Of a stretch of 64,000 nt of DNA, positions 2,687 through 55,320 are shown in pieces. The stretch covers positions 557 to 64,556 of the forward strand of contig JAGGSQ010000042.1 of NCBI GenBank assembly GCA_021159015.1. Reading direction: 5' to 3'. A program made the position numbers and the translations under genes. The notes beneath the pieces were generated by a model, which was not told the DNA's origin, searched no databases, and saw nothing but the letters and a program-made list of their open reading frames with translations. The stretch's first letter is position 1. Each line of letters starts with the position of its first letter. This DNA is from Candidatus Omnitrophota bacterium (GTDB lineage Bacteria > Omnitrophota > Gorgyraeia > Duberdicusellales > Duberdicusellaceae).

Positions 2687-2687
2687 T

Positions 2688-3311: not shown

Positions 3312-3313
3312 AA

Positions 3314-3508: not shown

Positions 3509-4696
3509 TTATTCTCCAATTACCGACGCCAGTGCCCGCACGTCTTTAGTTTGAGAATAGGCAGCAAAGAGCTGGCTGGCCAGATGGGGATGGTCAGAGC
3601 GGGTTTTACCTTCTCCTACATTGTCTTTCATTAAGCGTGAGAGAGAAGGAAGTCCCGCAATAGGAGGATAAACTCCTTTTTGAGCCAGTTCTCTTTCCAG
3701 AACAATCTGCCCCTCCGTAATATAGCCGGTTAAATCCGGCACGGGATGCGTAATGTCATCATTGGGCATAGTAAGGATAGGAAGTTGAGTGATAGAGCCC
3801 GTAGCACTAGCTACCAGGCCGGCTCTTTCGTATAAGGAAGCCAGGTCACTATAGAGATAGCCCGGATATCCTTTGCGCGCGGGAACTTCTCCCCGCAGGG
3901 TAGAGACCTCTCTCAAAGCCTCGCAATAATTGCTCATATCTGTCATAATCACCAAAACATGATAATTCTTACGGAAAGCTAAAAACTCTGCCAAAGTAAG
4001 AGCGGAACGCGGCGTAGCCAGGCGTTCAATGGAAGGGGCATCGGCCAGGCTTAAAAAAATGGCTACCCTCTCCAGAACGCCGCTCTGGCGGAAATTGTCA
4101 ATAAAAAAGCGGGCCGTATCATATTTTATGCCCATAGCGGCAAACACCACGCAAAAGTTAGAATCTTCATCTACGATTTTTGCCTGACGCACAATCTGCG
4201 CGGCCAGGCGGTCGTGAGGAAGACCGGCGCCGGAGAAAATGGGCAATTTTTGCCCTCTTACCAAAGTATTCATAACATCAATGGCAGAAATCCCTGTCTG
4301 GATAAACTTCTCCGGATAGGTACGCGCTGTAGGGTTAATAGCTAAGCCGGAAACATCTCTCCGTTCCTCTTCCTTACCTAAGCCAAAACCATCCTGAGGA
4401 CGGCCCAGCCCGTCAAAGATTCTTCCCAGCATCTCTTCCGAAACTCCTAAATCTAAAGGCCTCTCCTTAAAAATCAGACGAGAGGACTTAAGACCTAAAT
4501 TGGCTGTACCTTCAAAAACTTGTACTACAGCTGCACCTTTTTCTACTTCTAAAGTTATGCCTAGACGCCTGTGGCCTTCCTCGTCAATTACTTCCACCAG
4601 CTCGTTATAGCCAACATCGTGGATATTTTTAATAAAAACCAACGGGCCTACTATCTCATTTAGGCCACGATATTCCTTCTCACCTCTAACGCTCAT
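3509..4696 (-). CDS. atpB: V-type ATP synthase subunit B (non-catalytic); ORF ends at an in-frame TAA and the conserved C-terminus continues in frame to 3314
   Basis: 395 aa ORF, homologous throughout to V/A-ATPase B. It stops after ASVIGE. The next 64 codons in the same frame (ELTPLDHIYLKFGEAFEKKFLSQDYEEERGIYESLDLGWRVLSILPKEELHRITGEEIEKYYGR) are the canonical B-subunit C-terminus. Confidence 0.85.
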
Positions 4697-26749: not shown

Positions 26750-27772
<1,023 letters not shown>

Positions 27773-27783
27773 TTACCTTAATG

Positions 27784-28377
27784 CTATTCTCCCGCTTTAA
27801 AATTACCCTTCTTCACTAAATCTATTACTACTCCGGTAATAACCTTATCTATTTTACCTCTATTAACCATTTCCTGCAGCTCTTTTTTAACCTCCTCCTA
27901 CCCCAGAGCTTTACGATAAGGCCTGTCTGTAGTTAAGGCATCATAGATATCGGCTACGGTAAGAATTCTTACCTCTAACGTCTTTATATCATTTTCCAGT
28001 TTATTAATAATCTCCTGAAAGGTACCGGCTAGGCTTGCTACTTCGCCTTTCTCGCGTGCTAAATTAGCAATGAAGCCTTTATTTACGCCGCCGGATGTCA
28101 ACTCTTTCGCTTGAGTACTGAGGATAAATAATTTCTCAAATATTCTACGAATATTAGCAAAAAAAAGTAGAGCGCCGCTGGTCAAAATGAGTATAATCAA
28201 CTCCAGCTGCACCTTAGAAAAAGGAATCAAGACAGATTGTCTGGTATAATTTGATACAAGATAGAACAAGATATAAAGAAGAATAAACAAGGGAAGAAAG
28301 AAAAGAGCTACAAATCCTATTGAGAATAATTTAAAAATATAGCTTGACTTATAAGAAAATTTATATTTCTTCCCCAT
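27784..28377 (-). pseudogene. degraded membrane HAMP-HD-GYP gene (core HD-GYP deleted, in-frame TAG at 27898-27900)
   Basis: The 159-aa ORF is 2 TM helices, a HAMP-like segment, then only the terminal HD-GYP motif TVADIYDALTTDRPYRKALG. After the TAG the same frame continues 37 codons (EEVKKELQEMVNRGKIDKVITGVVIDLVKKGNF...), matching the usual HD-GYP C-terminal extension. The HD and GYP core motifs are absent. Confidence 0.55.
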
Positions 28378-28408
28378 TTTATCTCTCTTACTGATAACCC
28401 AAAAACAG

Positions 28409-28437
28409 ATTATATAGCCTTTTTTTCTCTAAAGCAA
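28409..28437 (-). promoter_or_regulatory. sigma70-like promoter (TTGCTT-N17-TATAAT) upstream of the HAMP-HD-GYP remnant
   Basis: Read on the minus strand: -35 TTGCTT at 28437-28432, a 17-nt spacer and -10 TATAAT at 28414-28409, about 30 nt upstream of the ORF start. Confidence 0.3.
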
Positions 28438-28470
28438 GTGAAATGAAATATCACTGGCAGCAGAAAGACC

Positions 28471-29031
28471 TCAGTGCGGTAGAGTACCGGTGGATTTCCT
28501 TATAGAATATTCAACGTAGCCAGCGAGAACCTCTTGTATTTTTGCCGGCGGCGGAACAACAAAATAATGCGACATAATAGCATGGGCCATTTCATGAGCC
28601 AGCATAGGCATAGTCATGTCCGCCAAGGAAATAAATATAGTATCAGTAGAATGTATATAAAGAGAAGGTAGATCTGGTTTTTGCCCTTCGAAGTTCCTGA
28701 AAACATCTTCTTTTAGAGCTTGGCGGGTAGGGTATACCACAATTTTTCCATGATAGCTATATATGTGTATATCCAAAATGTCCGAAACATCCAAATATAA
28801 AGCGTCTAACGATTTCGCAATGATACTATCAGGAGTAGCAGGAGAGTACTCTATATCTCTCTGAAGAAGGTAATTGGCATTAATTTTATAGGCAAACTCG
28901 CTCCTGTCACAGCCAGAAAAACAAACTAAGGTAAAATATTTGCCTACAATTTCTTCTGCGGCTAAAGAAGCTGTATAAAAACAAAAAAATATACCTCCTA
29001 TTAATACTAAATAAATCCTCTTGTACATCAA
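28471..29031 (-). CDS. secreted hypothetical protein with HExxH zinc-metallopeptidase-like motif
   Basis: 186 aa with an N-terminal signal peptide and HEMAHAIMSHYF near the C-terminus. No wider family recognised. Confidence 0.4.
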   Translation of the reverse strand: MMYKRIYLVLIGGIFFCFYTASLAAEEIVGKYFTLVCFSGCDRSEFAYKINANYLLQRDIEYSPATPDSIIAKSLDALYLDVSDILDIHIYSYHGKIVVYPTRQALKEDVFRNFEGQKPDLPSLYIHSTDTIFISLADMTMPMLAHEMAHAIMSHYFVVPPPAKIQEVLAGYVEYSIRKSTGTLPH

Positions 29032-29577
29032 TTAAGTTCGAAAAAAACTCAGTATTTCCTCTATTGCTTTTATCTGTCTTTCTATCTCGGGACTCAGTGG
29101 CCCAGATTTTAACAAAGAAGAAAGAGCTGTAAACTCCTTCTGCAGAAACAATATCTTGTCTTTCAAGATAGTATTCATATCTACTAATGCCTGAGAAAGA
29201 TTCTTAAGTTGGTCATTACTACGCGTGTTAAAATTGAGGTTCAACTCCCCTTCTTTAAGACGATCTATCTCTTTTTTAAGCCGATACAAAGGCCCGGATA
29301 TCTTGTGGGAAATCAATAAAGTCAGGATAATCACGGCGAGAGAAGCAAAAACACTTACCCAAAGAATAATCTGAATCACTACCGGTAAGATAAAATCTGA
29401 AGTACTCTTGACGTAGACATGAGTATTTTCTATAGCTACAGTAGTAGAATTTCGCAGAAAGAAAAGAAGCAGAACAGCAATAAAAGCAGAGGAAAGAACA
29501 ACGATATATGCAAATTTAATAATAAATTTTGTCTGAAAACTTTTGTCAATAAAGTAGTGGCGTCTTTTATTATCCAT
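29032..29577 (-). CDS. membrane protein with two TM helices and a HAMP domain
   Basis: 181 aa: TM1, a ~25-aa loop, TM2, then HAMP (ISHKISGPLYRLKKEIDRLKEGELNLNF...LSQALVDMN). It has no output domain. Confidence 0.5.
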   Translation of the reverse strand: MDNKRRHYFIDKSFQTKFIIKFAYIVVLSSAFIAVLLLFFLRNSTTVAIENTHVYVKSTSDFILPVVIQIILWVSVFASLAVIILTLLISHKISGPLYRLKKEIDRLKEGELNLNFNTRSNDQLKNLSQALVDMNTILKDKILFLQKEFTALSSLLKSGPLSPEIERQIKAIEEILSFFRT

Positions 29578-30208
29578 TACTGCCTCCTTCTTGTATTCCT
29601 AATAATTTATAATTTATTTTTATCTTTGCATTCTGACGGAGAGAATTTATCCAACTAGTGAGCGCTTTCTGTTGTTTCTGACGAAAAAGAATAAATTTTA
29701 TTTGTCCGTATATTTCTTCCAAGCTCTTCTTACCAAAGCTCTCTTTATGATTCTCAAAGTAGTCTCTTACTTCGTTCTCAGTAACCTTTATTCTCCCGGA
29801 CAACTCCTTTATTTTTCTGTCTATTATTAACTTAAGCAACGTCTGCTCCCAGAAAAACTGCACATCTTGCAAGAAGCTAGGGTCTTTATCTAAGCCGTCT
29901 CTTTCTGCTTCTAAAAGGATGAGCTTACGATTGATAAAAGAATTAATTAACTTCTTCTTATCAGCAGGAGAAAGCTGCCTCTCTCTGGCAAGACGCAAAA
30001 GAGAAGTATCTACTTCCTGTTTAGTTATCCTAAGCTTGCCTATAGAAATAGCCGTCTCTTTATGAGAGCATTGACAAGCCCAGAATCCGCCTGCCATAAC
30101 AAATACAAGCAATATTAATATTGCCTTCCTCATCTCGTTCCTCCTTTTTATGTTTTTATTATATGCCGGCAGCGGCAAAGCCACAACAAATAAATCCTTA
30201 TGCAACAT
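29570..30208 (-). CDS. SurA N-terminal-domain chaperone-like lipoprotein
   Basis: 212-aa ORF. The internal Met at 30133 starts a lipoprotein-type signal (MRKAILILLVFVMAGGFWAC). The rest resembles the SurA_N/PpiD chaperone domain without a PPIase domain. The annotated N-terminal extension runs into the IS hairpin. Confidence 0.5.
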   Translation of the reverse strand: MLHKDLFVVALPLPAYNKNIKRRNEMRKAILILLVFVMAGGFWACQCSHKETAISIGKLRITKQEVDTSLLRLARERQLSPADKKKLINSFINRKLILLEAERDGLDKDPSFLQDVQFFWEQTLLKLIIDRKIKELSGRIKVTENEVRDYFENHKESFGKKSLEEIYGQIKFILFRQKQQKALTSWINSLRQNAKIKINYKLLGIQEGGSNG

Positions 30209-30233
30209 TTTGCTTCGTAAGCAAAATGTTGCA
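30201..30233. repeat. 33-nt perfect hairpin TGCAACATTTTGCTT-CGT-AAGCAAAATGTTGCA (copy 1, downstream end of the transposase)
   Basis: 15-bp perfect stem with a 3-nt loop. It is identical over 36 nt (including the 5' TTA) to copy 2 at 31198-31230. Confidence 0.9.
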
Positions 30234-31121
30234 TTACACTATCTCACTATGCAGCCAGCGGTAAACCGTCACTCTGTCCACGCCCAACTTCTTTGATATT
30301 TCCAAAATAGAATATCCTCTGGCTAACAACTGCTCTACCAAATAAACCAAAGCTTTTCTGTTTTGAGGAAGACGGGGAAGCTTTCTCCCTTTAATTCTCT
30401 GCATCTTTTTCTCTATTTCCCAAAGATTACTAAATAATTTACTCGACCCCAAAAACATCTTCTTATTTCTTCTCGCCCATTTAATTACTTCTTCATAGAG
30501 CTTTTTTATTGACTTCTTCCCTTCCATTGTTCTGATACTAAAAGATATTTTGCTCATATCTTTGACAAACTTTCTATAGGCAGCCTTAGCTTTTTTGGTG
30601 CTAGAAGGATATACCTCTTCTAAAATTGGCAAAGGGTTAACAAATGAGCTCTTTACATTCTTGACGTATATATCCAAAGAATGCCAATGATATTGAAAAG
30701 GAGAAGTAACTATTCTGGCCCGGTAAGCATTAAGATGTATATACAAAGAGATGGTAAGAAAATAATCTGCATCGTTGCATAGCGCTGCTCTATATCTTCC
30801 CGAAAAAACATGTCCTTTTCTTTCGTATTTGCTGTTAAAGTATAAAGCGTATCTTTTGAATAATTCCTGCATTGCTTTTGACAAGAGATTGTTTCCTGTG
30901 CGAAGCAAGATATGTAAATGATTGGTAAGCAGAGAGAAAGCATATACCTCCAATGAGAACTTAGCAGAAGACTCTTTAAGAAGAGAAATAAACTTAAGAT
31001 AGTCTGACTCCTCCAAGAATACTTTCTCTTTTCCGGGAGCCCGCTGAGTAATATGATATACTCCCCCCTCTATTATAATTTTATTCTGCACTCTTAATAT
31101 CCTCTTCTTGCCTCTATCCAT
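30234..31121 (-). CDS. IS200/IS605-like Y1 (HUH) transposase, RAYT-like, with C-terminal helix-turn-helix extension
   Basis: 295 aa. The N-terminal ~140 aa carry the Y1_Tnp hallmarks (YHITQR, the HUH motif HLHILL and GHVFSGRYRA with the catalytic Tyr region). The C-terminus carries an HTH (ISKKLGVDRVTVYRWL). Identical hairpins flank the gene. Confidence 0.75.
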   Translation of the reverse strand: MDRGKKRILRVQNKIIIEGGVYHITQRAPGKEKVFLEESDYLKFISLLKESSAKFSLEVYAFSLLTNHLHILLRTGNNLLSKAMQELFKRYALYFNSKYERKGHVFSGRYRAALCNDADYFLTISLYIHLNAYRARIVTSPFQYHWHSLDIYVKNVKSSFVNPLPILEEVYPSSTKKAKAAYRKFVKDMSKISFSIRTMEGKKSIKKLYEEVIKWARRNKKMFLGSSKLFSNLWEIEKKMQRIKGRKLPRLPQNRKALVYLVEQLLARGYSILEISKKLGVDRVTVYRWLHSEIV

Positions 31122-31163
31122 ACTGCTTACTTACAAAATCTTACGTTAGGCTCCATTACTAGC

Positions 31164-31191
31164 ATTATACAGAAATTAGACTTTATTGCAA
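31164..31191 (-). promoter_or_regulatory. sigma70-like promoter TTGCAA-N16-TATAAT for the Y1 transposase
   Basis: Read on the minus strand: -35 at 31191-31186 and -10 at 31169-31164, about 45 nt upstream of the ATG and 7 nt from the hairpin foot. Confidence 0.4.
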
Positions 31192-31197
31192 TGGTTA

Positions 31198-31230
31198 TGC
31201 AACATTTTGCTTCGTAAGCAAAATGTTGCA
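31198..31230. repeat. 33-nt perfect hairpin (copy 2, upstream end of the transposase, 36 nt downstream of the tpsA stop)
   Basis: Identical to copy 1, including the 5' flanking TTA. Confidence 0.9.
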
Positions 31231-31266
31231 AATAATATGCCGCAGGAGATTGTTTGCTATTGGCGC

Positions 31267-34200
31267 TTACGACGGTGCGGGAAAAGGAGGTAAAGATTGT
31301 TGATAAAATGCAGTTTTACGCTTTCTCTTCTCTTTCTTCTTTTGGTCTTCGTAGTACTGGTAGAATTTGTTCTTGTCTTTGAGTTTGAGGCTGTTTTCAA
31401 TAAATTCATAAGCTCCCACATCTAAGCGTATGTCGTCAAAAGCAGAAGTATCAGTGGGAGTTAAGGGATGATAAGCATAAAATAAAGGTGTGGCCGGTTC
31501 AAAGGAAGCGAAGCGATAACCGCTAAGAGATTCGAAATAATCTTCCTTAACCTTTGCTGCTTCTTGCTGGTAACGGGGATTGTTGTAAAACTTATGGCGG
31601 TATTGGGCAATGAAAGGTTTATGCCTGCTTACTACCAACTGTGCGAGCCGCTGGTAATCAGCATTACTCTTAGGAGACCAGATTTGCTTGGTGTTAAAAT
31701 AGACAAAGCCCGGAGGATTTAAGGGCTGGGGGAAGCGAGTAGGTATAAGTATAGGGGTATTTAAAGGCGTAATTGTTCCCACTAAATTGCCATAAATTTC
31801 TCTAGTGGGATAGGTAATGGAGAGGTTAGAGATATCTAAATACAGGTCTCCTTTAATAGAGACATTTAAGGGTGTCCCCACAGGGCTAATCTTTCCATTT
31901 GGCGCATTTAAAAAAGAATCCTTTACTGCTGCCACATGCGGACCCGCATTTTCGGCAAGGATCGAACCATTTTCTGCTGTCAGGCGGACACCTGATTTTC
32001 TGGACTGGACTGTTCCGGTAATGGTTATATCCCCAGCAGGAGTTAAGAGATTTATAAAGCCGTCAGAGATAATGCGGTTTATAACAATCGGACCATGAAC
32101 TGTCAGGCCTATTCTGCCACCAGCAGAGATATTATTGAAAGTAACACCATCCATCTCCTCAAGGTATAAATCGTTCCCTGCTACCGCATTAATCGTATTT
32201 GCCCATATGTCAATATCGCCGTTAAAAACGGACATATCTCCTATATTATCCTCAGCCTTTAAATCTACCAAATCACCGCGAATATAGTTGGTATCAGCGG
32301 GGTCAACAAACAAATCGTCACAGATACTGCCCGAGGCGGCATTCAGGTAAACATCACTATCCCCCTTAGCCTGGATATCTCCGACAAAAAGGTCTGAATG
32401 TGTTGTAATATGAATGTCTCCTCCCTCATTGTCCACATGTTTGGCATATAAACCTCCGGTATTGTCTATCACAATGTTCCCCATCCGGGAATTGTCAGCA
32501 ACAAGCATATTTGACCTCGTATCAAGGTCTATACCTTTTTGTGCGTCAATATGAAGTTCATCAGCTGCCACATCGCGGGCAGGAACACCATCCTGCGTAA
32601 TAGAGCCCTGTTTTGCCGTCAGGAAAACATCATTTTTTGTGCCGGCATCTATCCATATTGCCTTAATTCCTGAAACAATGCTAGTTAAACTGATATCATT
32701 GGCATCATTATCCGTGAAAGATGTCTCAACATCTGTGGCGGTTATTTTTCCAAGCGCACTTATGGTTACCGAACCATTGGAAGCTATAACTTTGGAAAGG
32801 TCAATATCATCCCTATCGTAAAACGTTATATTCCCCGCCTTTTTGGAGCGGGCAGTCAAACTGTTTACATCATTATTAAAGTGAAGCATTGTTATATTTC
32901 CGGCCGCAGTCGCAAAAAGGCCTGAAGAATTGACAAAGGCATTGCTTTGTATTATGTCTCCCTTGCCGCTTCCGTCATAATCAGCATTTATATATATGTC
33001 GCCTGCTGTAATAATATTGCCGGAGACCTGTTTAAAGTCACTGCCTGAGTTTAATGTAATAATCCTACCTGCACCACTACTGGTAATATTTGCATAAACT
33101 GAAAGAATATCGTCGTCTCCTCCATCTTCTGCCGCCAACAACGTTATATTTCCACCCGAAGAAACAGGGCTCAATACATTAAGAGGAGAAGCCGCAGATA
33201 TATTAAGCTTTCCCCTGGTATTCACTGCTGAAAATCCATCATTATTAAGATCTAAAAGGTTCAATGTTCCGGTATTGGCAATACCAACGGCATTATCAGT
33301 ATTTACTACGTCAAGGTTCACCACAGTTGTTTCTATAGCATCATTTTCTCCAATACCCGACTCAGCCCTGAGTTTCAAATCTTTCGCCGTAATATTATTG
33401 GAATTGCCATTTGCATCAGTAATTGCCCCATATGCCCTTATATCGGCATTTGTTCCGCAAGATACTGAATCTACTGCTATTTTCCCCAATGCCGTAAGCT
33501 TCAGCGCCTGACCTACAGACACATTGCCTAAAGTGACATTATCCTTTTCACCAATAAAGGCACTGCCAGATACATTAGAAAGGTTTAATGTATCTACACC
33601 TATATCCAGCCAATTCAACTCTCCGGCAGAACCAACATTGTTTGCCTTCATAATGTTCAATGTGCCTGCCGTAAGATATTTACCATCGTTTGAGGTATCG
33701 ATTATGTCCCCATCCGCATTAAGTGTAACAGCATGAGAACCGGCATTAACTGAGCCGTTTAGTCTGATATCATCAGAGGACCTAAGAGACACATCTCCCG
33801 AAGCTGTTATAGTGTAATTACTGAAAAGATTTAAATTGCCACTGGTAGTAGAAATATTTATGCTTCTTGCAGATATATCTTTTAAACTCAATGCCCCACC
33901 AGAAGAAACCTCACTTATATAAATATCGCCGGCACCATTATTAACTGCAACATAAGAAATTCTGGTATCTAAAGCATCGTTGCCTGCCGCCCCAACATTG
34001 CCTGCATTATTCATTATTAATCCATCCGCCCAAATATAACTTGTGTTATCTGTATCCAAAATATCCGCTCCTGCCGGATTAAGTCGAACAAGCTTGCCCT
34101 TCGCATTGAGATTGGCTCCAAAAACCATATTTCCTTTAGAAAAGAAATCAACGTCATCGCCTGCAGACGTATCTCCTATAATAGAGAGGCTGCCCATACT

Positions 34201-49200: not shown

Positions 49201-51072
49201 ATTGCTGGTGGCAGCCGCAACGGAAACAGAATTACCGGCATTTATCTTAGCTCCGCTATTTACCAGTGACTCGGCAACCGCCTCTGAACGGCCATATGCC
49301 ACACCCAAATACAAACCAATTGTAGTCATCTCCGCATTGGAATATGCCTGACTACCAATTATTATATCGTTATCGGCACTAAGAGTTGCCCCATCTCCTA
49401 TCTCTACCTTCGATTTAGCAGAAGATAAAACCGCCGCACCAAAAGCAGAAAACTCCAAGATAGCACTCTCATCTATATCATAACCAAGTTCACCCGGCAG
49501 GGATGAAACATCTTCACCAAGCTCCACCAACTTCGCCGTAGATGCCGTAGACGTAAGAGATATATTATTCGCTTTAATAAATGAAGAATCGCCTATATTA
49601 ATGCTGGCCTCGCTTGCTTTGAGTTTAAATCCCGGGGTTGCCGCCCATATCAAATCAACAATGTCCTTAGCAGAAAGAACCACATCCCCCCCAGAATAAC
49701 CGTTGTCAGCAAACGCAAGAAGATATACCCCATTTCCTATATTAATAGTAGGCGCGGAAAACTTGATATCGCCTGAATCCCCCTTTGAGGGCATAGATAA
49801 ATGGGCATTTTTTGTATCTCCGCCGGTAATATCCCTACTAGAAATAACGATATTATCAGAAACATTTATTGATTCGTCAGCCTGATAAATAATATCTGCA
49901 CCATAAGAGTATATATCGCCTGTAATATTTACCACATCCGGGTCAATCACAAAATTACCATTCATACCTGTATTGGAAGAAAGGTCGACCTTCAGACCAT
50001 CGATACCTACTCTCCCTTCAGCGCTTATATCAAGATTTCCTCCCTTGCCGTTAATTCTGCCGCCTTTTGCAGAAATTCGCACATTTCCGAAAATAGATGT
50101 ATCTCCAGCTGAAAAAACCCTGATATTCCCGCCGGAAAACTCTAATCCCCCATCGGCCTTAATAAAAGCATCCTTAGTTAAAACTGTATCTTGGCAGGAA
50201 TCAATAGACACTTTCCCGGCTTTCCCATCGCCGCTGGAACTCACATCAATAAGGCCCGAATTAACAGCAATACCGGCACTACCTACAAGTTTTATCACAC
50301 CATCTTCTTCTACAATCCGGGCTGCCTCAACTATGCCTTTCTTGTTTACTACCTCCTCTATCAGAGAGAATGCCTCCTCTTTGGGAATAGTAACTGTACC
50401 CGGCTTTCGGTCCATCCTGGGAATAACAAAATTTATCAGGCCCTGCTCATCAAAGCTCATACCGAAAGCAGTGGCACCGGCAATTACTACCTCTCCTGCC
50501 TGGGCAATAATTTCTCCTTCATTGGAAACCAAGGGAGAGACTAAAACCACAAAGCCGTTATTATCTACTTTGATACTTCCCCTGTTGACAACATAGGAAG
50601 GAACAAAACCTTGTTTCAGATTAAAGTTATATCTTCCGGCAAGAAAATCATCATTGGATATATCCAGGGTAGAAGCAACCAGCCCAGCAGCATCAACCCG
50701 CGCTGTTCTTCCAAAAAGAATTCCATTGGGATTGACCAAGAAAAGCCTGCCGTTGGCAGTTAATGTTCCAGATATGTTTGAGGGATCAGCCCCCACAACT
50801 CTGTTTAAGGCAACTGATGAAGAAGAAGGCTGGTGAAAATGGACGGCCTCCGGTCGGGCAATGCTGAAGGAATTATAATCAACAATGAGTTTAGCAGAGG
50901 AAGTATTGACATTCAAAGTATTAGTCTGGGACCTGTCAAAATTCGCAGATCCGGCTACTACTTCTTCTCCTTCAGGGAGACTATAGGAAGTAAACGGGTA
51001 AGCTAAAAGAATGAAGCTGAAAACAAAGATAAAGAAATTGTCCTTCTCTTTTCGATTGGGCTTCGTTTCCAT
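31267..51072 (-). CDS. giant two-partner-secretion exoprotein (TpsA / filamentous-haemagglutinin-like adhesin), 6,601-6,608 aa
   Basis: A single uninterrupted 19.8 kb ORF. The N-terminus is a signal peptide plus a TPS (haemagglutination activity) domain with the conserved motif LFLVNPNGILFG. A tpsB gene lies immediately upstream. The body is beta-helix-like repeats. The start is ATG at 51072 (the ORF track uses GTG at 51093). Confidence 0.85.
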   Translation of the reverse strand: METKPNRKEKDNFFIFVFSFILLAYPFTSYSLPEGEEVVAGSANFDRSQTNTLNVNTSSAKLIVDYNSFSIARPEAVHFHQPSSSSVALNRVVGADPSNISGTLTANGRLFLVNPNGILFGRTARVDAAGLVASTLDISNDDFLAGRYNFNLKQGFVPSYVVNRGSIKVDNNGFVVLVSPLVSNEGEIIAQAGEVVIAGATAFGMSFDEQGLINFVIPRMDRKPGTVTIPKEEAFSLIEEVVNKKGIVEAARIVEEDGVIKLVGSAGIAVNSGLIDVSSSGDGKAGKVSIDSCQDTVLTKDAFIKADGGLEFSGGNIRVFSAGDTSIFGNVRISAKGGRINGKGGNLDISAEGRVGIDGLKVDLSSNTGMNGNFVIDPDVVNITGDIYSYGADIIYQADESINVSDNIVISSRDITGGDTKNAHLSMPSKGDSGDIKFSAPTINIGNGVYLLAFADNGYSGGDVVLSAKDIVDLIWAATPGFKLKASEASINIGDSSFIKANNISLTSTASTAKLVELGEDVSSLPGELGYDIDESAILEFSAFGAAVLSSAKSKVEIGDGATLSADNDIIIGSQAYSNAEMTTIGLYLGVAYGRSEAVAESLVNSGAKINAGNSVSVAAATSNTLKLKTYAGSASSKGVDISFTYGKGISNSRAIVEDNVSVKAKDVNVIASNNNNFLVSSGTFDMESSKFGAAASVVFSDMDSSATASLNGTVSSVNNIVVNANSINVKNKATTSAMATNPVQNKAVVGTLANKTYEKIKKKKLKEKSNAKLDLAAAVTFVKSQNKADSHIADGADVDASGDIDVSSRAEDNYQISASGSAGDGTIAVGGAVAFGDYNNEADAYIGKNAKVDASKSLTVSSESIVPSQMTWIEGWSFDYDWPTFNSGDTTGEFIENVWDFGVGTISEAVGTTLNTLSDYLNLNFGVANRISTTYTQCSGSGDKLGIAGAVTFVNLDNISNAYIDEGAKVNTDSAFYGPEQSVLVNAYSSIDEIDIAGLFSIFSLGFGTTGEGSVGGSYVGGVFRNTAKASIKDGAAVNAKKNPSETSDKNDIKVNAEAHHRKLSVAEAGGNSDKFTITGAFNTLDLENTALAYVEDTADLSASHDVDIEAKNEVSVINVVAGVAKSDTVGIGAGVSWNDIDNVAKAFIGNVEDSSLSKGEINAGHDLILNASSKDDSYSFSLAGAAGAQFGIKNKLGNLFKSIWAKIKGGNSSGGQATGENNDNEKSSSKFGLGVSGDAGLNFATDDVQAYISDGVDVTAGNDVIINAKNLSTMLSVAAAAAGAKTVGLGGVFSHNHITKTTKAFAEAVDLTVSKDVDIYADSGNSLVSISGGGSGSQKVALAGAANTNWISNDTLAALAKSTKVSSADNIFVNADNYNRIISAAVAIMGAGKVGIGGAVDFGIVDNDILAYLGDDTDITAQGNISLISSSDDNIIPVSAAFGGAGKIGLTGAGESYTITNNVSSFIGKRAKVRTEKNLLADADDDTDIIGVAGAAAGGGTAGVGGSAFNANIVKNIKAYIDELADVTAKAKGSDPITIELHNVEGIQLDARADDDLKIFSAAGSGGGKAGVAGAVNEKTVVSTAEAYIGDNAKINVVGNADADGAQSVVLRAKNDTGILGIGGSASGGGTAGVGASGDVDVLVKHTNSYIGKNAQVIAKKHIDISSTSKENVFSITAGAAGGGTAGIAGAASALVVVNNTLSFIDSYSDVESDGNILLLAQDDTDSNLFVGSGAGGGTAGVGGSVAANTIVNNTKAFIADGAYVVAKAKRDSSDVYDGDIDVPTLDLTVTLPDGNNFSFGIGELTDATKKTKQFKGLNINAFATEDLRNVVVGGSGGGTAGVAGTLSVNIVVNNTSAYIGKDAVINDTSDAGADQSVEINAFDYTGVNGYGGVVTGGGTAGVGGSADTSAIFKNTSAWVDERSKVKARKDIGIRADSLERISSMMAGLSGAGTAGVSGTVSFALIKSDTHAFTVSTDNKDDRVILEAGNDIRISASDESRIFQFSGIIGGGGTTGVGGSLTAVLLENDITAELGDFTESNARHKTSVAANSEENIDSFAVGGTGAGTAGVAGSLVLRIMDVDTHARIGRNSELNQNSAFAVSGQSIEVSSSDKVKVLGISGAAAAGGTAGVGGSLDLTVVKNRVIANIDADAKVYSEDGLTDADGVLVRSDSEKVIDSLSIAGTGAGTAAVAGAVSVVSVGAKFEDDVQNHLTGKDTEGNDVSTGDYVDQKGEAGISGQFGSIGDIEFTDSNGNTTSIEDFIEDKSSISVSGDMNQTSNEPLTDTAAYIGDGAEVKSKGEVNVLAKDALTVNMSAGSAMGAGTAAVGGAGAFMLSNNTTRAFIGDNARIDAKKLVSVNAESSERIIDATVSLGGAGTAAVAGSLLLNVINTGTYAYIDSGAEVNQDNAYKGNDQSVTVEADSKTVLTALGGTGGAAATAGIGATAVVNTVVKDTKASIGKSARVSAKKQIDIVTNVADDINSGAVSLQGAGVAAVGGVISTNTIVNSTESLIDEGAVVDSDGNIRIFSEDDSLINSLSGNGNIAGTAAVGGSVSINTLVKHTYARIADDAVVNARGNGDDMDVYTGEIDGNSDIAFVGGAVDKWNQMVDSVTSYNQTRTPVTEDGKKTRKMKGVSLTASSTEDIFSVTTGVGGAIVAGVTGSGAINTITTTTEASIGNDVKLNENNNGASSSQEVYLNSLDHSRVLSLTGVVAGAVKVGVGGGIATNIITKNVRSFIGGSDEARRADQKNIVKSKGNVSISAVSSDQVNNIIMNLSVGGIAGVGGAIAANVIANQVHSYIADKGKVDTDGDLLVKSKDDSYIDVTVGNGAFGIGGGVGGAVSVNVIANSTRSSIGDDALTNASGITDVFSDAVEDIEPIVIAGGAAGLVGVSGSINVDIIKSTTQSKIGDRAEINQDNSFYKSGQYVKVRSNDSAHISSKVGGGGVAAGIGAGGAADVNILRNSATAHIGNASKVKAYEDILVDAHTDKLVDSYTGSVGAGIMSGLSGSISISAVGGGLNYDARDSLGGSANGESGDSIEYADSVLDFNPIEEEENGFESDGKTHWSKGYKSTENVSQEFGDKNNAVKPSSDVDADGSQHPLSSTQAFIGSGAVVEAGRNLIVRASDTSHTRINAGGLSVAFQGGLSGAFAANILSNSTEAYIEDGAKTKAAEQTLVEADEDEQADTISISGGAAVFMGSARSNGITVIDSKTKAHINKNAVVNASCTDGNTVNVRAVSDSNINSVIGGGAGGLLEGVGSSYNACVVAKTTEAYFGEGSSVNALKGIKIDADSSEEIDDSSICFGVAAGAGQGIVAAVYSLNNNTIACIKDGASVDTDGSFMVNAKDDTALKSIAGSAGVSGVLGVGGSLNVNVITSNTRSYIADNVTVRAKGLYDSMDVYTGELADDGDPLTPITDDVKKTSARHGVFVTAFATEDILSDTTGLSVGTGNVSGAVGVEIIKTDTNAYIGNNVSINANEHSVSSQEVYVLAADHTRLVSSANTLSGGLVTSVGGSVDTGIFAKDTRAHIGNGSVVKSGGDITVQALSREDTEVATAALAGSLVGGMAGSVSVRCLSNSTDVYVGSDAHLDSGNNIRLFSSDRSTVDAKTGSASVGLGVAGFGGAVSVVTINNFTESHADSNTNLKSAKDVDINADSSETIDSVTVAGAGGGLTGVAGSVSVNVVTSKTHVYTKDGVNIDAGSDSSVKAEDTVNVSSKTGGGALSIGLGVGAGVDVDVIRTDTGAYLGTNNTVTADNLEIRAVSEKSVNSKVISASGGLACGITGAVSIVLAGADLSGDSRDESGNTASYSQEQASANKVDGYVDDVQGTDVKSDINNVSVESELNKSSSGSMSRTFAYMGDGSSADIENNLSITSSDSTDIDSYAGGFALGLLGIGGAFSSAKANIETTAGIGEEVDIDAGKISVYAEGKSDAYAESFAKTAGALSGVAAKAETVNVSTTEGYIGSGGNGKKIESDEFDVKADQETKFNSKTDSSAVSVVGKSGAWSSNKANALTTVDIGSNTQIKSDSVKIGASTTVWKPWLSDYNAISGSGGVFNGAAASGKTDVSVHTKVNIGNNAKIQMHDDADTTSDIEVSALNDLYLYDKVKLDAAGFISLAKSESFITAQPVDASINIGDGAFLKSLGDVKFFARTNADMKAQANTSTYGLASAGQGESKALADSDDTLIFGNNSEVIASKQMYLMAGADTDTVSLFSVKANTDVFNKTAFAYSGTPTADATARHNAGINIKSGSRIASGSHMYINAAKGLLFANGNGKASDASRYALEKLIELFGTDADGAFDTLGGHSVNEGKGSIILEGKLETGIYRDLFLTFGTNMFNPYYKKDDGTKGRYTIGYDAENGFWAVYNGENRLRILVPDQQSEGISWTVLTDQRIVDNIQQEIDRLENLKNQYGANSELAQDINTRINILKAQLNSQGNDEYVDIIKVNPAYAASGDVNIWGDYLVGTGEIIAPGDVKIRIINNSPLPIKLDSLTIPDDLGGKIKFNNHVVRDSSGISALNDGAPVGTVVNFTLQDAQDSLPPLIEVKNNFDKNSGVYNPDNIPDLSDPALFISGPINNINGMVSISNDTGSIIATSSIRADTIQLSAGGDFIFDSPETLYNIGPNPAAGFKYLAEAYENNWPVKPAYKGQSPSNSFQIAGNNIYINADTVNINGVIQSGLPDKAIVITQADVEAAYNEANRTGKRFVQILKVDESLDPSRRVVVGGISAELDARDNEIRILGAQVRGGLVFISGRIVSTGDGKINVLDGYGRINIDNQTSLPVVLKDVDTGGAEGQVILIDKAKDNGTGLSFVTRYERLGNQIRIFTNSGVNSTVATQLKSIATGRDAIYQPLENMRYFWMTGKATSSQTIKKWYKEHDKFLGFIPVSERHFSSSDYVSGYPKTRILSGDELPQGDFVGQKHAADYTYKRLTVTTKNDLIHQDDSEGTYWYWHPGSWWHPPYPAKKTWWRRTQIWDKGTNTYNYHSVKADLPIDVSFIGYDRGQVSVNSVGDIRLGGNLNNVGGVTNLTSSAGSILSKSSFSSVKSGEINLMANNGSIGKKDMYFKITHSGGNTLNALAGKNIYIESPNGDLFVTNLVTGSGSVGLIANDNLLLSNSISIIKGKNIYLEAKTGTIGAPLDVLRVDTDAANGGVIDVISAKGDINLMEVSGDLAIHKVSASGDVNIFAPGDIIDANSNEKADTRTKSELLALWNDMQLTGAGAENKKQSQWDAYSNTMNEAYKSYWSKERNLKRNSDGTYSWDAYDPNVEFHYSQSERDSLKKSGWSDKDIKDLENDMTDKYRTWGQTDFDPDFSYSLSDKEKDDLSSGYFWTQKQLEGGLPSFVLTKDTTLSIEDPNIVGRNVTVVAGGEIGKDKDDLIFVFSKNYTDAEIDEIKLAIASAERDDLEWGANQLVIHRREDLDVHASENVFLTATGHIFLGSEHDINVYALNAGDRVRVKVGGRIFNPRPDAFSNMVASNGIILEASNGQIGTVRSPVRIALSGDKPYVTARASGDIYLEKPLGDIYLDVINSGQKAWIKADTGSIFDWLDDSTTNIYADNIELNAFNSIGNPLGNAGALDVELTDANGVLNMHTNAGSANLFSNKDLNVGVSDIAQGLRIYSMGSLSIIGDTSAGDDVDFFSKGNMVFGANLNAKGKLVRLNPAGADILDTDNTSYIWADGLIMNNAGNVGAAGNDALDTRISYVAVNNGAGDIYISEVSSGGALSLKDISARSINISTTSGNLNLFSNYTITASGDVSLRSSDDIRLNGSVNAGSHAVTLNADGDIIDTSNDGKYLTAGTLNIMKANNVGSAGELNWLDIGVDTLNLSNVSGSAFIGEKDNVTLGNVSVGQALKLTALGKIAVDSVSCGTNADIRAYGAITDANGNSNNITAKDLKLRAESGIGENDAIETTVVNLDVVNTDNAVGIANTGTLNLLDLNNDGFSAVNTRGKLNISAASPLNVLSPVSSGGNITLLAAEDGGDDDILSVYANITSSGAGRIITLNSGSDFKQVSGNIITAGDIYINADYDGSGKGDIIQSNAFVNSSGLFATAAGNITMLHFNNDVNSLTARSKKAGNITFYDRDDIDLSKVIASNGSVTISALGKITATDVETSFTDNDANDISLTSIVSGIKAIWIDAGTKNDVFLTAKQGSITQDGVPARDVAADELHIDAQKGIDLDTRSNMLVADNSRMGNIVIDNTGGLYAKHVDNEGGDIHITTHSDLFVGDIQAKGDSDVYLNAASGSICDDLFVDPADTNYIRGDLVDLKAEDNIGDMSVFNGDIDIWANTINAVAGNDLYLEEMDGVTFNNISAGGRIGLTVHGPIVINRIISDGFINLLTPAGDITITGTVQSRKSGVRLTAENGSILAENAGPHVAAVKDSFLNAPNGKISPVGTPLNVSIKGDLYLDISNLSITYPTREIYGNLVGTITPLNTPILIPTRFPQPLNPPGFVYFNTKQIWSPKSNADYQRLAQLVVSRHKPFIAQYRHKFYNNPRYQQEAAKVKEDYFESLSGYRFASFEPATPLFYAYHPLTPTDTSAFDDIRLDVGAYEFIENSLKLKDKNKFYQYYEDQKKKEKRKRKTAFYQQSLPPFPAPS
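39300..49000 (-). repeat. intragenic tandem-repeat region of tpsA: about 70-80 degenerate 38-48-aa units with a Gly-rich core (GGGTAGVGGS / GAGTAAVAGS) followed by NxxxNxTxAYIGxxAxV
   Basis: The units run from about aa 700 to 3930 and are most regular between about 43.3 and 46.6 kb. The antisense frames therefore produce runs of PTPAVPAP-type spurious ORFs. Confidence 0.7.
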
Positions 51073-51161
51073 AAGCCAATAGACAAAACACACTATCCGT
51101 TACTTCGGCAGCTCGGCTATCCGTGGTATTAAACTTACCTTTAGATCCGCAGCTTTGCGTC

Positions 51162-51177
51162 CCCAGGTTGCCCTGGG
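51162..51177 (-). other. intercistronic RNA stem-loop between tpsB and tpsA (CCCAGG-GCAA-CCUGGG on the transcript, GNRA-type loop)
   Basis: Inverted repeat cccagg ttgc cctggg in the 200-nt tpsB-tpsA spacer. No U-tract follows it on the transcribed strand. Confidence 0.25.
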
Positions 51178-51295
51178 TTTGCCTTTTCGGAACTGATTTT
51201 CAACAATAATAGTATATTATATATGCCATCGATTTCCTATTTTGTCAAGGGAAGCCAGAAAATCTTTTTAAAGGTTTTTATTAAGTCTGCCTCAG

Positions 51296-53086
51296 TCAAT
51301 ATTTCCATTTTAGTTCTACCCAGACTTGATAAGAATCGTTATCCGAAGATTCAGGTCCTCCCCAAGGGTATCCTATTTCTGCCCGGAAAGAAAATCTATC
51401 CGTGGGGTTAAATCTCAAACCAAAGCCGTAGCCTTTAAGAGTTCTGTTTTTTTCTCCGGCTAAGATTCTGTTCAGGCGGACAGTTGCCCAATCGTAAAAT
51501 ACCACTATCCTTAAAGCATCATATAGATTAATATTTTTGGATAACGGAAGCTTGGCCGTTTTAGGAAGAAAATAAGGAGGGAAGGACCACTCCAAGGAAG
51601 TGCAGTAGCCTTTATCTCCGGAATATTCTGCAGGAGGATACCCCCGCACAGTAGCCGGACCGCCTATCTGAAACTGCTCCGAGGCAACCAGACTGTAGCC
51701 GGAAAGTTGGAACGAGTTCTTCCAAAGAATGCTCGATGAGAAAGGTCCCGGCTGAAGCCGGAAATAATTACCTGTCCATTTTAAGAATTCGCCTCCTGCT
51801 CCGACCCGGGAAGAGGCAGGGTCTTTGGCACTCAGCGCTCCCCACATTCGGGGAACACCGGCATCCAATTCCAGGGTAAAGATGTTTCTTCCCCAGGCGT
51901 CAGTGAAATCTACATCCAGGCCGGTTTTTAAGACCCGGACCTCGTCTCTTGAAGACTCCACCCCCAATAAATAGTTGCGTATATGTTTGTAGTCAAAGCC
52001 CAAATTGAGACTTAAATCCAAATTTCTCTCATCTATAAGAGTCTTGCTCAGAAATAAACCAGCGATTGTAGCTTTACCTCTTGCTTCCACATCTTCAAAT
52101 TCCTGGCCCAATTTCAGTCGGCTCCTTAAAAAATAACCGCCTACCTCCAAGGTAGGATTAACCGGAAAAGAATAGCGCCACTGTTTCAACATCAAAGCAG
52201 CAGCTTCTGACTGCTGAAACTTAAAATACAACTTGTCATCAAAGCCCAAAAGATTATTGTGTTCAAAAACTAAAGAGCCTCTGTCCTTTTCTATATAGCG
52301 GGAACCAAAATTATCATATTCAAAACCTACATGGATAGGAAGTCTATCTTTTACCTTAATTATTATATCGGTTGTGCCCGGCTCTTTACCTGGCCGAAGC
52401 ACGGCCCGCGCAAAGCGGTCAGGATGTTCGTTAATATAGGTAAGAGAACGTTGAAGGTTTGAGTAATCAAGCGGCTTGCCGGGTTGGACATTTAATTTTT
52501 TTTTCAAAAGGGAAGTGCGGAAATAACGGTTGCCTTCTATCTTCAGGCTTCCTGCCTTGCCTTCAATAACCCTGATAATCAAGACTCCCTTCTTAATTGT
52601 TTGGGGAGGGATATAGGCCCAGGAAGTAAGGTAACCTTTCTTGCGATACTCATCAGTAATCAAGTCAGCTATCTTCTGCATATCGAAAAGAGAGAGCTCT
52701 TTGCCTTCGTACTGAGAGGTTATATTCTGAATGTCCTTTTCTTTAATTAAAGTTGCTCCTTCCACTTTGATTGTTTTAATTAAAACTTTGGGGCCTACTT
52801 CCTTAGGAGAAATTTCTTCTACTTTTGCTTTTTCCGCCTTTTCTTTCTTTTTCTGGATTCTTTCTTTGAGCTTCTTCTCTTTCTCCTGCATCTTCTCCTG
52901 CTGCAGGATGCCGCCGGCGGTCTGAGAAGAAGATACCTGAGCTAAGGAAGACAGTGGAAAAAGGAACAAACCTACAATTACCAAACTTCCTATATATCTA
53001 CACTTTTTCATATTGACCTGCTGTATGACCATAGTATCAATGGTATCTTCTACTATCAAGCTATTCTTTCCTACTTTATTCAACAC
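51296..53086 (-). CDS. two-partner-secretion outer-membrane transporter TpsB (ShlB/FhaC family, POTRA plus 16-strand barrel)
   Basis: 596 aa with a signal peptide (MKKCRYIGSLVIVGLFLFPLSSLA from the internal Met at 53011), a K/E-rich linker, POTRA-like segments and a C-terminal beta-barrel ending in an aromatic residue (ELKWKY). The TTG at 53086 has a GAAGGGG RBS 4 nt upstream. It sits directly upstream of tpsA. Confidence 0.85.
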   Translation of the reverse strand: MLNKVGKNSLIVEDTIDTMVIQQVNMKKCRYIGSLVIVGLFLFPLSSLAQVSSSQTAGGILQQEKMQEKEKKLKERIQKKKEKAEKAKVEEISPKEVGPKVLIKTIKVEGATLIKEKDIQNITSQYEGKELSLFDMQKIADLITDEYRKKGYLTSWAYIPPQTIKKGVLIIRVIEGKAGSLKIEGNRYFRTSLLKKKLNVQPGKPLDYSNLQRSLTYINEHPDRFARAVLRPGKEPGTTDIIIKVKDRLPIHVGFEYDNFGSRYIEKDRGSLVFEHNNLLGFDDKLYFKFQQSEAAALMLKQWRYSFPVNPTLEVGGYFLRSRLKLGQEFEDVEARGKATIAGLFLSKTLIDERNLDLSLNLGFDYKHIRNYLLGVESSRDEVRVLKTGLDVDFTDAWGRNIFTLELDAGVPRMWGALSAKDPASSRVGAGGEFLKWTGNYFRLQPGPFSSSILWKNSFQLSGYSLVASEQFQIGGPATVRGYPPAEYSGDKGYCTSLEWSFPPYFLPKTAKLPLSKNINLYDALRIVVFYDWATVRLNRILAGEKNRTLKGYGFGLRFNPTDRFSFRAEIGYPWGGPESSDNDSYQVWVELKWKY

Positions 53087-53104
53087 CCCTTCACCCTCTC
53101 TTTT

Positions 53105-53581
53105 TTAATACCCCATAGCAATCCGTCCCGTCCGGACTAGCTGTTTTATTTCGAAATTCTCAATCTCGGAAAGAAAACCTTTAGTCTGGCGGTTGTCGCC
53201 TACAAATTCTAACACTAAAACGTTATTCTTTTCTGACACAATACGTACATCATACTTAGATTTAATCTCTTTTAGGATGCGGCGGCTGTCTTTTTTGTCA
53301 AGAACAATTTTGGCCAGAATGAGTTCTCTATCTATGTGCTCTCTCTTGGTCAGATCAATTACCGTAACTACATCAATAAGCTTATTTAGCTGCTTTTTAA
53401 TCTGTTCCAAAATTCTTTCGTCTTCGGCATTAACCACCAGAGTAATACAAGAAATAGTAGAATCCTCTGTAGTTCCTACTGCCAGCGAATCAATATTATA
53501 CCCCCGCGCCGAAAACAAAGAAGAGACTCTTGCCAGAACGCCAAATTTGTTTTCTACTAAGGCTTGGATAGTATGTTTCAT
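53105..53581 (-). CDS. ilvN: acetolactate synthase small (regulatory) subunit
   Basis: 158 aa with an ACT domain (IQALVENKFGVLARVSSLFSARGYNIDSLAVG). Its start overlaps the ilvB stop. Confidence 0.85.
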   Translation of the reverse strand: MKHTIQALVENKFGVLARVSSLFSARGYNIDSLAVGTTEDSTISCITLVVNAEDERILEQIKKQLNKLIDVVTVIDLTKREHIDRELILAKIVLDKKDSRRILKEIKSKYDVRIVSEKNNVLVLEFVGDNRQTKGFLSEIENFEIKQLVRTGRIAMGY

Positions 53582-55248: not shown

Positions 55249-55320
55249 CGCAAAGCAATTATATCATTTTAAACCCAAAGACAAAAGATTTTTCTTTGTA
55301 CCCTGGAAGAAGCATTTTTA

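Follow-up and report, generated by a model that had tools for sequence, protein, structure and literature searches.

A composite, apparently phylum-native block with a two-partner secretion cassette and a predicted riboswitch-gated giant tpsA opens the ilv-leu operon of a Candidatus Omnitrophota bacterium

Introduction

What separates ilvN from ilvC in this bacterium, how did it come to lie there, and is its expression tied to the operon that it interrupts? These questions are raised by the window analyzed here, a 64-kb stretch of DNA (64,000 nucleotides; positions 557 to 64,556 of contig JAGGSQ010000042.1, assembly GCA_021159015.1) from a Candidatus Omnitrophota bacterium, in which the genes of the ilvB-ilvN-ilvC-leuA operon are parted by a block containing a transporter gene, tpsB, and a giant gene for its presumed substrate, tpsA. 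The original prediction, made from this DNA alone, regarded the block as an island of envelope, secretion and mobile genes of deviant composition, possibly read through from the ilv promoter. Our analysis favors a different account, which we hold to be likely: the operon was opened by a composite block native to the phylum, carrying a two-partner secretion (TPS) cassette whose tpsA is gated by a riboswitch, and a segment of this cassette has been exchanged between strains. Coordinates throughout are window positions, and relatives and strains are cited by locus labels (L004, L089-L111).

Results

Synteny of the interrupted operon

The limits given in the original prediction, with ilvN ending at 53105 and ilvC starting at 27763, were exact and enclose 25.3 kb. 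The gene content it had listed (tpsB, tpsA, a Y1 transposase, a SurA-like lipoprotein, a HAMP protein, an HExxH protein and an HD-GYP remnant) was confirmed by Pfam searches, and every gene of the region lies on the minus strand. The block is composite: it consists of a five-gene TPS cassette, a transposase resembling the tyrosine transposases associated with repetitive extragenic palindromes (RAYT and REP, respectively) together with its palindromes, and a GAF-HD-GYP gene.

The junction was compared with seven Omnitrophota relatives, four related by IlvB (L089, L090, L091 and L092; 73-77% identity) and three by IlvC (L103, L104 and L105; 83-84%). The IlvB matches are named Candidatus Omnitrophica or Omnitrophota. 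In all seven relatives, ilvC comes directly after ilvN, at a distance of 9-112 nt. The genes ilvB-ilvN-ilvC(-leuA) are contiguous in L089, L091, L092, L103 and L104, while L090 and L105 have an extra gene between ilvB and ilvN and keep the ilvN-ilvC adjacency. The order downstream of ilvC (leuA, a small open reading frame (ORF), aroE, a prepilin peptidase gene and aroC) is shared by the relatives and the window. The proposal that adjacency is the usual bacterial arrangement also held, 61 of 76 loci from diverse bacteria having ilvN within 400 nt ahead of ilvC; these came from an IlvC scan of a genome collection whose best matches were 70%-identical Clostridia, with no close relatives, and were used for the adjacency count only. 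The block is thus an insertion relative to an ancestral ilvB-ilvN-ilvC-leuA order, and it is present in every conspecific contig. Judged by synteny, the split is derived and fixed in the window species.

Smaller interruptions of the same operon were observed elsewhere in the phylum: a GAF-HD-GYP gene between ilvB and ilvN (L090:11840-13144), a PDDEXK_3 gene at the same place (L105:5301-5705) and a DUF3352 gene between ilvC and leuA (L091:13271-15214). The ilv operon of the Omnitrophota has therefore gained other genes repeatedly and independently, and its splitting is ordinary.

The possibility that ilvC itself had arrived with the block was considered, since the window IlvC is 60-65% identical to four Omnitrophota relatives vs. 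67-70% to Firmicutes. It was ruled out, as the same 336-aa type, at 83-84% identity, occurs inside contiguous ilvBNC-leuA operons of other Omnitrophota. Two IlvC types exist in the phylum, the 336/337-aa type of the window and L103-L105 and a 329-aa type in L089-L092 (60-65% identical to that of the window). After L103-L105, the next-nearest relatives of the window IlvC are those of Thermotoga and Thermoanaerobacter (70-73%), and IlvB identity is similar for both groups, so that ilvC may long ago have been replaced by a xenologue within the phylum.

A five-gene two-partner secretion cassette

The cassette comprises tpsB, tpsA and genes for a SurA_N-like lipoprotein, a protein with two transmembrane (TM) segments and a HAMP-like linker, and a small zincin. 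TpsB matched POTRA_2 (PF08479, 6e-23) and ShlB (PF03865, 3e-29), both above cutoffs. Its gene may start at GTG 53086 or, more likely, at ATG 53011 (signal peptide MKKCRYIG...SLAQ), since homologous TpsB proteins begin directly at the signal peptide. The tpsA gene, 203-224 nt downstream of tpsB, starts at a conserved ATG (51072; 6601 aa) that is used by public gene callers and matches the L098 homologue. TpsA has a signal peptide, a TPS domain in its first 400 residues (PF05860, 111 bits against a cutoff of 33.5, E = 1e-31), an adhes_NPXG match (TIGR01901, 86 bits) and an NPNG motif at residue 114. At least 34 LktA_tand_53 repeats (NCBIfam) span residues ~660-3960, five consecutive 661-aa segments scoring 114-188 bits with the repeat model NF012206 (cutoff 50), at 5-8 repeats each; these repeats place TpsA in the family of filamentous proteins of the Fusobacterium leukotoxin. 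About 2600 aa were left unannotated, and Pfam searches over the 6601 residues returned nothing beyond the TPS domain, which was missed when 3000-aa pieces were searched and required segments of ~660 aa. No tandem repeats were found in tpsA at the DNA level, and no VENN, PT-VENN, DUF637 or toxin domain was found in the 660-aa segments. Judged by its domains, the locus is a type Vb two-partner secretion system of the LktA family, in which export of TpsA is predicted to depend on TpsB.

The three accessory genes, which the original prediction had grouped under envelope, secretion or mobile functions, are no random collection. The L095 and L101 loci contain tpsB, tpsA (1325 and 1726 aa, respectively) and orthologues of all three in the same order (41-57% identity), inserted between lpxB and fhs in L095 and between nadE and gdh in L101, with an intrinsic terminator and a TATAAT box between tpsA and the accessory genes in both. 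The window counterpart of this terminator is a REP-like palindrome (31197-31231) with a 16-bp stem and without a U-tract, which may now act as a 3'-end stabilizer or terminator of the tpsA transcript. A truncated form was observed in a complete Omnitrophota genome (CP070797.1, L096:11725-12755), where tpsB is followed by a 344-aa tpsA encoding the TPS domain alone, without accessory genes, and atpE and thrS adjoin. A TpsB scan of metagenome contigs yielded only six loci, mostly short.

The SurA_N-like protein is a lipoprotein with a chaperone-type N-domain and without a peptidyl-prolyl isomerase domain. It is 41-45% identical to its L095 and L101 orthologues and matches Pfam SurA_N_3 below threshold, whereas a profile built from the three orthologues matched the chaperone N-domains of HP0175 and Cbf2 (E = 7e-6). 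The 2TM/HAMP-like protein is 50-57% identical to its orthologues. The third protein (186 aa) has an HExxH motif (HEMAH) on a zincin fold, its AlphaFold2 model reaching a pLDDT (predicted local distance difference test) of 91 from a 61-sequence alignment and 39 from the single sequence. Its family counts 536 representative clusters at E ≤ 1e-3, and a search of PDB sequences with its profile gave no match.

Composition and origin of the block

The view that tpsA and tpsB are less AT-rich than the flanking genes stood for the bulk GC content of tpsA (0.44 vs. a background of 0.413 ± 0.028) and not for its third codon positions (GC3), which are host-like: 0.372 in tpsA and 0.33-0.43 in the island genes, against 0.380 ± 0.035 in the background. 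The excess sits in codon position 2 (GC2 0.437), the protein being rich in Gly, Ala and Ser, and the small island genes are more AT-rich (GC 0.35-0.38). Synonymous-codon distances of the island genes fell within the background range, and no gene of the window had a lower one than tpsA. By tetranucleotide usage tpsA was distant (0.032-0.038 vs. 0.015 ± 0.001 in the background). Back-translation of TpsA with host codon frequencies, however, reproduced this distance (0.0331 ± 0.0006 vs. 0.0316 observed), so the deviation is an effect of protein composition, and the compositional checks proposed with the original prediction lend it no support.

Homologues of TpsB numbered 541 at E ≤ 1e-10, with identities of 53-81%, and among the matches listed every one with a source name was from Omnitrophota/Omnitrophica. 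This wide distribution within the phylum argues for a native cassette that was relocated, and hence for a block that is, by these measures, native and not foreign. The term island is apt inasmuch as the block sits between genes that adjoin in relatives, but not in its other connotations, as it has no atypical composition, integrase, tRNA target or border repeats. In a search for target-site duplications the two borders had no repeat of at least 12 nt in common, and the internal RAYT-like Y1 transposase is the only mobility gene of the block.

Allelic exchange among conspecific strains

Conspecific flanks are 98.5-99.9% identical, yet three tpsA alleles were found, encoding 6601 aa (window), 2360 aa (L093, L094 and L106) or 3465 aa (L108). 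They are 30-47% identical to one another in their alignable C-terminal parts, and the LktA repeats are absent from the 2360-aa allele. Compared with L093, identity per 100-nt window was 95-100% through ilvB, ilvN and the first ~600 nt (~200 codons) of tpsB, with 96-100% in these codons, dropped to 50-70% near 52490, inside tpsB, and returned to ~99% at 31481, 215 nt before the tpsA stop; L108 regains identity at the same point. The strain-variable segment (31482 to ~52490) thus includes the 3' two-thirds of tpsB, the intergenic leader and nearly all of tpsA, a pattern consistent with joint replacement of a cognate transporter-substrate pair by recombination in conserved ends. Conservation of TpsA is highest in its last ~72 residues (YAYHPLTPTDTSAFDD...), whether alleles are compared or the proteins of L095 and L101.

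One further contig, L004 (JGI 3300016457, 10247 nt), has an inverted 93-nt end and a gap of ~290 nt in tpsB (window 51978-52291), the two sides of which differ in identity (99.0% and 99.98%). Two co-occurring strains were probably joined in this contig, as an assembly chimera near the recombination breakpoint.

A riboswitch leader upstream of tpsA and transcription of the locus

The leader of tpsA contains an element absent from the original prediction, a riboswitch aptamer of the cyclic di-GMP (c-di-GMP) I class (RF03167; cmscan score 70.9 bits vs. a gathering score of 59, E = 9e-15, model positions 1-80 of 80), which shares the strand of tpsA and stops 30 nt short of its ATG. Among the Rfam models, that of the GGC variant matched best. 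As Weinberg et al. reportedly described it in 2017, this variant has G for the canonical intercalating A in GGGACGC[A/G]AAGC. The window has A, not G, at the variant position of the model (GGGACGCAAAGC) and keeps the G in AAGGCAAACC, which places it outside the GGC subclass; this A and the retained G make up the canonical pocket for c-di-GMP, as in the Vc2 riboswitch. The aptamer is accordingly filed under the c-di-GMP-I class in general, with a canonical-looking pocket and c-di-GMP as its predicted ligand.

Upstream of the aptamer are a -35 element (TTGACA, 51243-51248) and an AT-rich -10 region (TATATAAT, 51216-51223) with ambiguous spacing; the -35 block CTTCCCTTGACA is conserved in L098, the closest tpsA allele that has a leader. 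TpsA N-termini of L098 and L097 are 80% and 83% identical, respectively, to that of the window, and L097 has lost the leader entirely. The L098 leader (L098:1741-1985) aligns position by position with window 51060-51295 and shares the promoter, the start region and the AAAGGTAAGTTT block, but its GEMM-I core is mutated (e.g. GGCAAACC to GGTAAATG), and it looks like a decayed riboswitch.

The 30-nt spacing, an AUG without Shine-Dalgarno sequence and the lack of a terminator between aptamer and ATG favor control of translation initiation. The riboswitch would then most likely gate tpsA at this step, and by analogy with known adhesin riboswitches our guess is that high c-di-GMP turns tpsA on. The AUG itself (51060-51080) lies in the loop of a 5-bp hairpin, GGCUU/AAGCC, which compensatory changes preserve in L098 (AGUUU/AAGCU); tpsA of L093, L095 and L101 has strong AGGAGG sites. 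A riboswitch of another kind, a c-di-AMP (ydaO-type) element of 74.8 bits, was seen at L095:545-698, upstream of a P-type ATPase gene with a PTS_EIIA_2 domain.

As for transcription from the ilv operon, the original prediction was right that no terminator separates ilvN from tpsB, a scan having found none terminator-like, and the stretch from tpsB to the riboswitch has no such site either, so that transcripts of ilvBN may read through into tpsB. Any such transcript would, given this layout, still have to pass the riboswitch before tpsA. The 18-nt ilvN-tpsB gap it described applies if tpsB starts at GTG 53086, whereas the likelier ATG 53011 gives 93 nt, which hold a promoter-like site (TTGATA-17-TACTAT, with TG). 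The ilvB promoter has a perfect extended -10 element (TGaTATAAT, 55254-55264, minus strand) ~9 nt before the ATG, too near to accommodate an attenuator, and the mRNA should accordingly have little or no leader; upstream of ilvB neither a leader peptide nor a T-box or any further Rfam element was found. The idea that the adhesin is tied to branched-chain amino-acid status thus found no support in the sequence, with ilvB lacking a sensing leader and tpsA having its own promoter-like -35 element and riboswitch.

Phosphodiesterase gene, transposase and palindromes

The intact form of the last gene of the block, found in L108, L109 and L110, encodes a 484-aa TM-HAMP-GAF-HD-GYP protein (with PF13487) and ends 20 nt before ilvC, the same distance at which ilvC follows the HD-GYP reading frame in the window. 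In the window, L106, L107 and L111 an in-frame deletion of 861 nt (287 codons; junction at 27973) has cost the protein its GAF domain along with the greater part of HD-GYP, joining HAMP to the last HD-GYP part, and the window copy also has a TGG-to-TAG change at 27898-27900. Lacking an intact catalytic domain, the window gene is, to judge by these lesions, a dead pseudogene. The intact protein is 52% identical to that encoded within the L090 ilv operon and 37% to a PAS-HD-GYP paralogue, and from these values the gene may have resided in the operon before the secretion cassette came. A TATAAT box upstream of the remnant (~28405-28410) suggests that ilvC-leuA is now probably served by the promoter of the HD-GYP gene. 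The paralogue is a second, intact phosphodiesterase gene (PAS + HD-GYP, 448 aa; 20060-21406, minus strand), 5 kb downstream of leuA, whose position is kept in all conspecific strains. Together with the intact GAF-HD-GYP gene of the sister strains, it counts in favor of c-di-GMP signaling in this genome.

The Y1 transposase (PF01797, 44.6 bits, above cutoff; NF047646 REP_Tyr_transpos, 52 bits, below the cutoff of 80) separates tpsA from the accessory genes in every conspecific strain, whereas the L095 and L101 cassettes lack it. On either side of it stands an identical, perfect palindrome of 35 nt (16-bp stem, 3-nt loop; ATGCAACATTTTGCTT-CGT-AAGCAAAATGTTGCAT), one copy 36 nt past the tpsA stop and upstream of the Y1 gene, the other overlapping the transposase stop codon. 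A pattern search gave 2 matches vs. 0 expected in the window, and no further copies were found there or in the non-conspecific loci examined. Features of the locus are listed in Table 1.

Table 1. Genes and elements of the interrupted ilv-leu operon, in window coordinates.
Feature	Position	Strand	Basis and remarks
ilvB	53581-55248	-	Pfam TPP_enzyme_N/M/C; left flank of insertion
ilvN	53105-53581	-	Pfam ACT_AHAS_ss/ALS_ss_C; left flank of insertion
tpsB, Omp85-type transporter	51296-53086	-	Pfam POTRA_2 + ShlB
tpsA promoter-like element	51216-51248	-	Sequence; alignment with L098 leader
c-di-GMP-I class (GEMM-I) riboswitch aptamer	51103-51192	-	cmscan/Rfam
tpsA	ORF 31267-51093; 31267-51072 from conserved ATG	-	Pfam TPS; NCBIfam adhes_NPXG, LktA_tand_53
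REP-like palindrome, copy 1	31197-31231		Repeat search; pattern search
RAYT-like Y1 (HUH) transposase with C-terminal helix-turn-helix (HTH)	30234-31121	-	Pfam Y1_Tnp + HTH_23
REP-like palindrome, copy 2	30200-30234		Repeat search; pattern search
SurA_N-like lipoprotein, cassette gene 3	29570-30133	-	Pfam SurA_N_3 below threshold; profile search; orthologues
Small two-TM protein with HAMP-like linker, cassette gene 4	29032-29577	-	Weak HAMP/histidine-kinase linker matches; orthologues
Exported mini-zincin (HEMAH), metallopeptidase-fold protein, cassette gene 5	28471-29031	-
HD-GYP pseudogene remnant	27784-28377	-	Sequence; intact orthologues; blastn junction
ilvC	26750-27763	-	Pfam KARI_N/C; right flank of insertion
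leuA	25247-26746	-	Pfam HMGL-like/LeuA_dimer; right flank of insertion

Discussion

The favored reading, of a phylum-native cassette that relocated into the ilv operon and evolves there by segment exchange, has to be set against several others. It is quite unlikely that the block is a horizontally acquired foreign island, read through from the ilv promoter so that the adhesin follows branched-chain amino-acid status. The lack of terminator-like sites from ilvN to tpsB and from tpsB to the riboswitch, the good Shine-Dalgarno sequence that accompanies the GTG start and its 18-nt gap, and the bulk GC of tpsA above that of the flanks would all suit such an island, but synonymous sites are host-like, the tetranucleotide deviation comes from amino-acid content, and the named TpsB relatives among the matches listed are all from the phylum. 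Moreover, the ilvB promoter is too close to the ATG for a sensing leader, with no attenuator, T-box or other Rfam element, the riboswitch and a conserved -35 element stand between tpsB and tpsA, and the likely tpsB start leaves a 93-nt gap with a promoter-like site. Against the possibility that the position of the cassette is ancestral for a deeper clade and was lost in the sampled relatives, with ilvN-ilvC adjacency secondary elsewhere, speak the short clean spacers in all seven relatives, which span two IlvC subtypes, the adjacency in 61 of 76 distant bacteria, the occurrence of the cassette at three other housekeeping loci (L095, L096 and L101) and the absence of ilvN upstream of tpsB in the contigs with the closest TpsB (80-81%). 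The presence of the block in every conspecific strain and the orthologous-looking GAF-HD-GYP gene in the L090 operon, by which part of the block may be old, point the other way, and we regard this history as very unlikely. That the arrangement or the alleles are artefacts of metagenome assembly, chimeric joins in repetitive DNA, seems extremely unlikely: the L004 contig does look chimeric, but the ilvN-tpsB junction and the full island were assembled independently in JGI, ENA, NCBI and Logan data at 99.97-100% identity, tpsA has no DNA-level tandem repeats, and each alternative allele recurs in two or more assemblies or is found on long contigs (one is shared by L093 and L094; L108 is on a contig of 99 kb).

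A further alternative concerns the nature of TpsA, which might serve in toxin delivery, as a CdiA-type effector or as an LktA-type cytotoxin, its variation then reflecting toxin-immunity diversification. In CdiA the variable toxin forms the extreme C-terminus, yet this is the most conserved part here (~99% identical among alleles, with the motif also in L095 and L101), none of the 660-aa segments contains a VENN/PT-VENN motif, DUF637 or toxin domain, and no small immunity-like ORF follows tpsA, the 145 nt past its stop holding the palindrome. We therefore consider this reading unlikely, even though the LktA_tand_53 repeats define the Fusobacterium leukotoxin family and strong allelic diversity at a TPS locus is typical of contact-dependent growth inhibition (CDI) systems. 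Omnitrophota are also suspected predators or epibionts (preprint 10.1101/2023.11.21.568195), as would suit a toxin.

Several observations weigh against the relocated, riboswitch-gated cassette that we favor. The label of adhesin is an assumption, and the Fusobacterium LktA that gives the repeat family its name is a leukotoxin. No relative was found between the species level and ~77% IlvB identity, which bears on the time and mechanism of insertion, and no integrase, tRNA gene (in the window) or border direct repeats mark the block. As to the riboswitch, the best-scoring Rfam model is that of the GGC variant, for which we know of no published ligand; no riboswitch was detected in L093-L097 or L099-L102 and the L098 copy is degenerate, so it is not a general feature of the cassette. 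The promoter scan did not call the tpsA promoter-like element, RNAfold of the leader gave no clear alternative ON/OFF structures and thus defined no expression platform, and the tpsA ATG lacks a Shine-Dalgarno sequence.

Parts of the locus resemble known systems. In Fusobacterium necrophorum lktBAC, too, a TpsB-type gene lies directly upstream of a very large TpsA gene, and LktA combines an N-terminal TPS/NPNG domain with long LktA_tand_53 arrays. The window differs in that the accessory trio (SurA_N-like, 2TM-HAMP and zincin) replaces lktC, in its riboswitch leader and Omnitrophota host, and in a TpsA twice as large, LktA being ~3200 aa. With Bordetella FhaB/FhaC it has in common type Vb secretion of a filamentous beta-helical adhesin, here as predicted from sequence. 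In Bordetella, Par27 is a periplasmic chaperone and SphB1 a maturation protease acting on FhaB; the SurA-like protein and the zincin might by analogy play these parts, but their genes lie within the cassette, the protease-like protein is a 186-aa zincin and not a subtilisin autotransporter as SphB1 is, and there is no BvgAS-type control.

The cdiBAI systems share the TpsB/TpsA pair, marked allelic diversity within species and exchange by recombination in conserved sequence. Here, in contrast, the TpsA body and the 3' two-thirds of tpsB vary while the C-terminus is conserved, and the window has neither a VENN motif nor an immunity gene. The transposase resembles the REP/RAYT pairs in being a single-domain Y1 HUH gene with the same perfect palindrome on both sides, and differs in having only two flanking copies in 64 kb, an NCBIfam RAYT score below cutoff and an extra C-terminal HTH.

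Large surface adhesins whose genes have a c-di-GMP riboswitch in the 5' leader are known from Clostridioides difficile (CD2831/CD3246) and Bacillus thuringiensis (Bc2-cap), although these are sortase-anchored Gram-positive proteins and not TPS substrates. The window zincin, which could release the adhesin, might be likened to the small zincin PPEP-1 (Zmp1) of C. difficile. The C. difficile protease has its own, oppositely acting riboswitch, whereas none was found for the window zincin. The Bc2-cap adhesin is documented as c-di-GMP riboswitch-controlled (PMC4933901), and our literature search found no paper linking such a riboswitch to two-partner secretion. Omnitrophota giant genes (West-Roberts et al., 10.1101/2023.11.21.568195; 10.64898/2026.06.07.730766) likewise include very long ORFs predicted to act on other cells, but the 6601-aa TpsA is far below the record sizes there, and those papers make no mention of two-partner secretion, TpsB or riboswitches. 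The elements new to this locus are the conserved accessory trio, the riboswitch confined to one allele, the three-allele polymorphism and the polymorphic phosphodiesterase gene next to them.

Taken as a working model, TpsB would export TpsA to the cell surface as a long filament, escorted through the periplasm by the chaperone-like lipoprotein; the zincin may trim or release it, and the c-di-GMP-I-class riboswitch would gate its expression. The RAYT-like Y1 transposase would have inserted behind tpsA, ahead of the accessory genes. Strains would swap the stretch that runs from mid-tpsB to a point 215 nt short of the tpsA stop by homologous recombination in its conserved ends, giving very different filaments on a near-identical chromosome. 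A bolder extension, speculative and on balance doubtful, is that the locus forms an attach-and-release module of an ultra-small host-dependent bacterium, turned on by the riboswitch, released by the zincin and tuned by the GAF-HD-GYP protein, in which segment swaps alter both the partner and the c-di-GMP response; if so, loss of the phosphodiesterase in the window strain would lock the switch in a high-c-di-GMP state.

The locus also calls for caution in that unusual GC content or tetranucleotide usage of a giant repetitive gene can reflect amino-acid composition alone and is no evidence of foreign origin. For the phylum, abundant uncultivated nanobacteria thought to live on or prey on other cells, it offers a candidate attachment system, to which the predicted riboswitch would add a second-messenger input. 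One species holds a natural allele series, with tpsA of 6601, 2360 or 3465 aa, an intact, decayed or absent riboswitch and an intact or deleted phosphodiesterase, which metagenomes could relate to habitat or host range.

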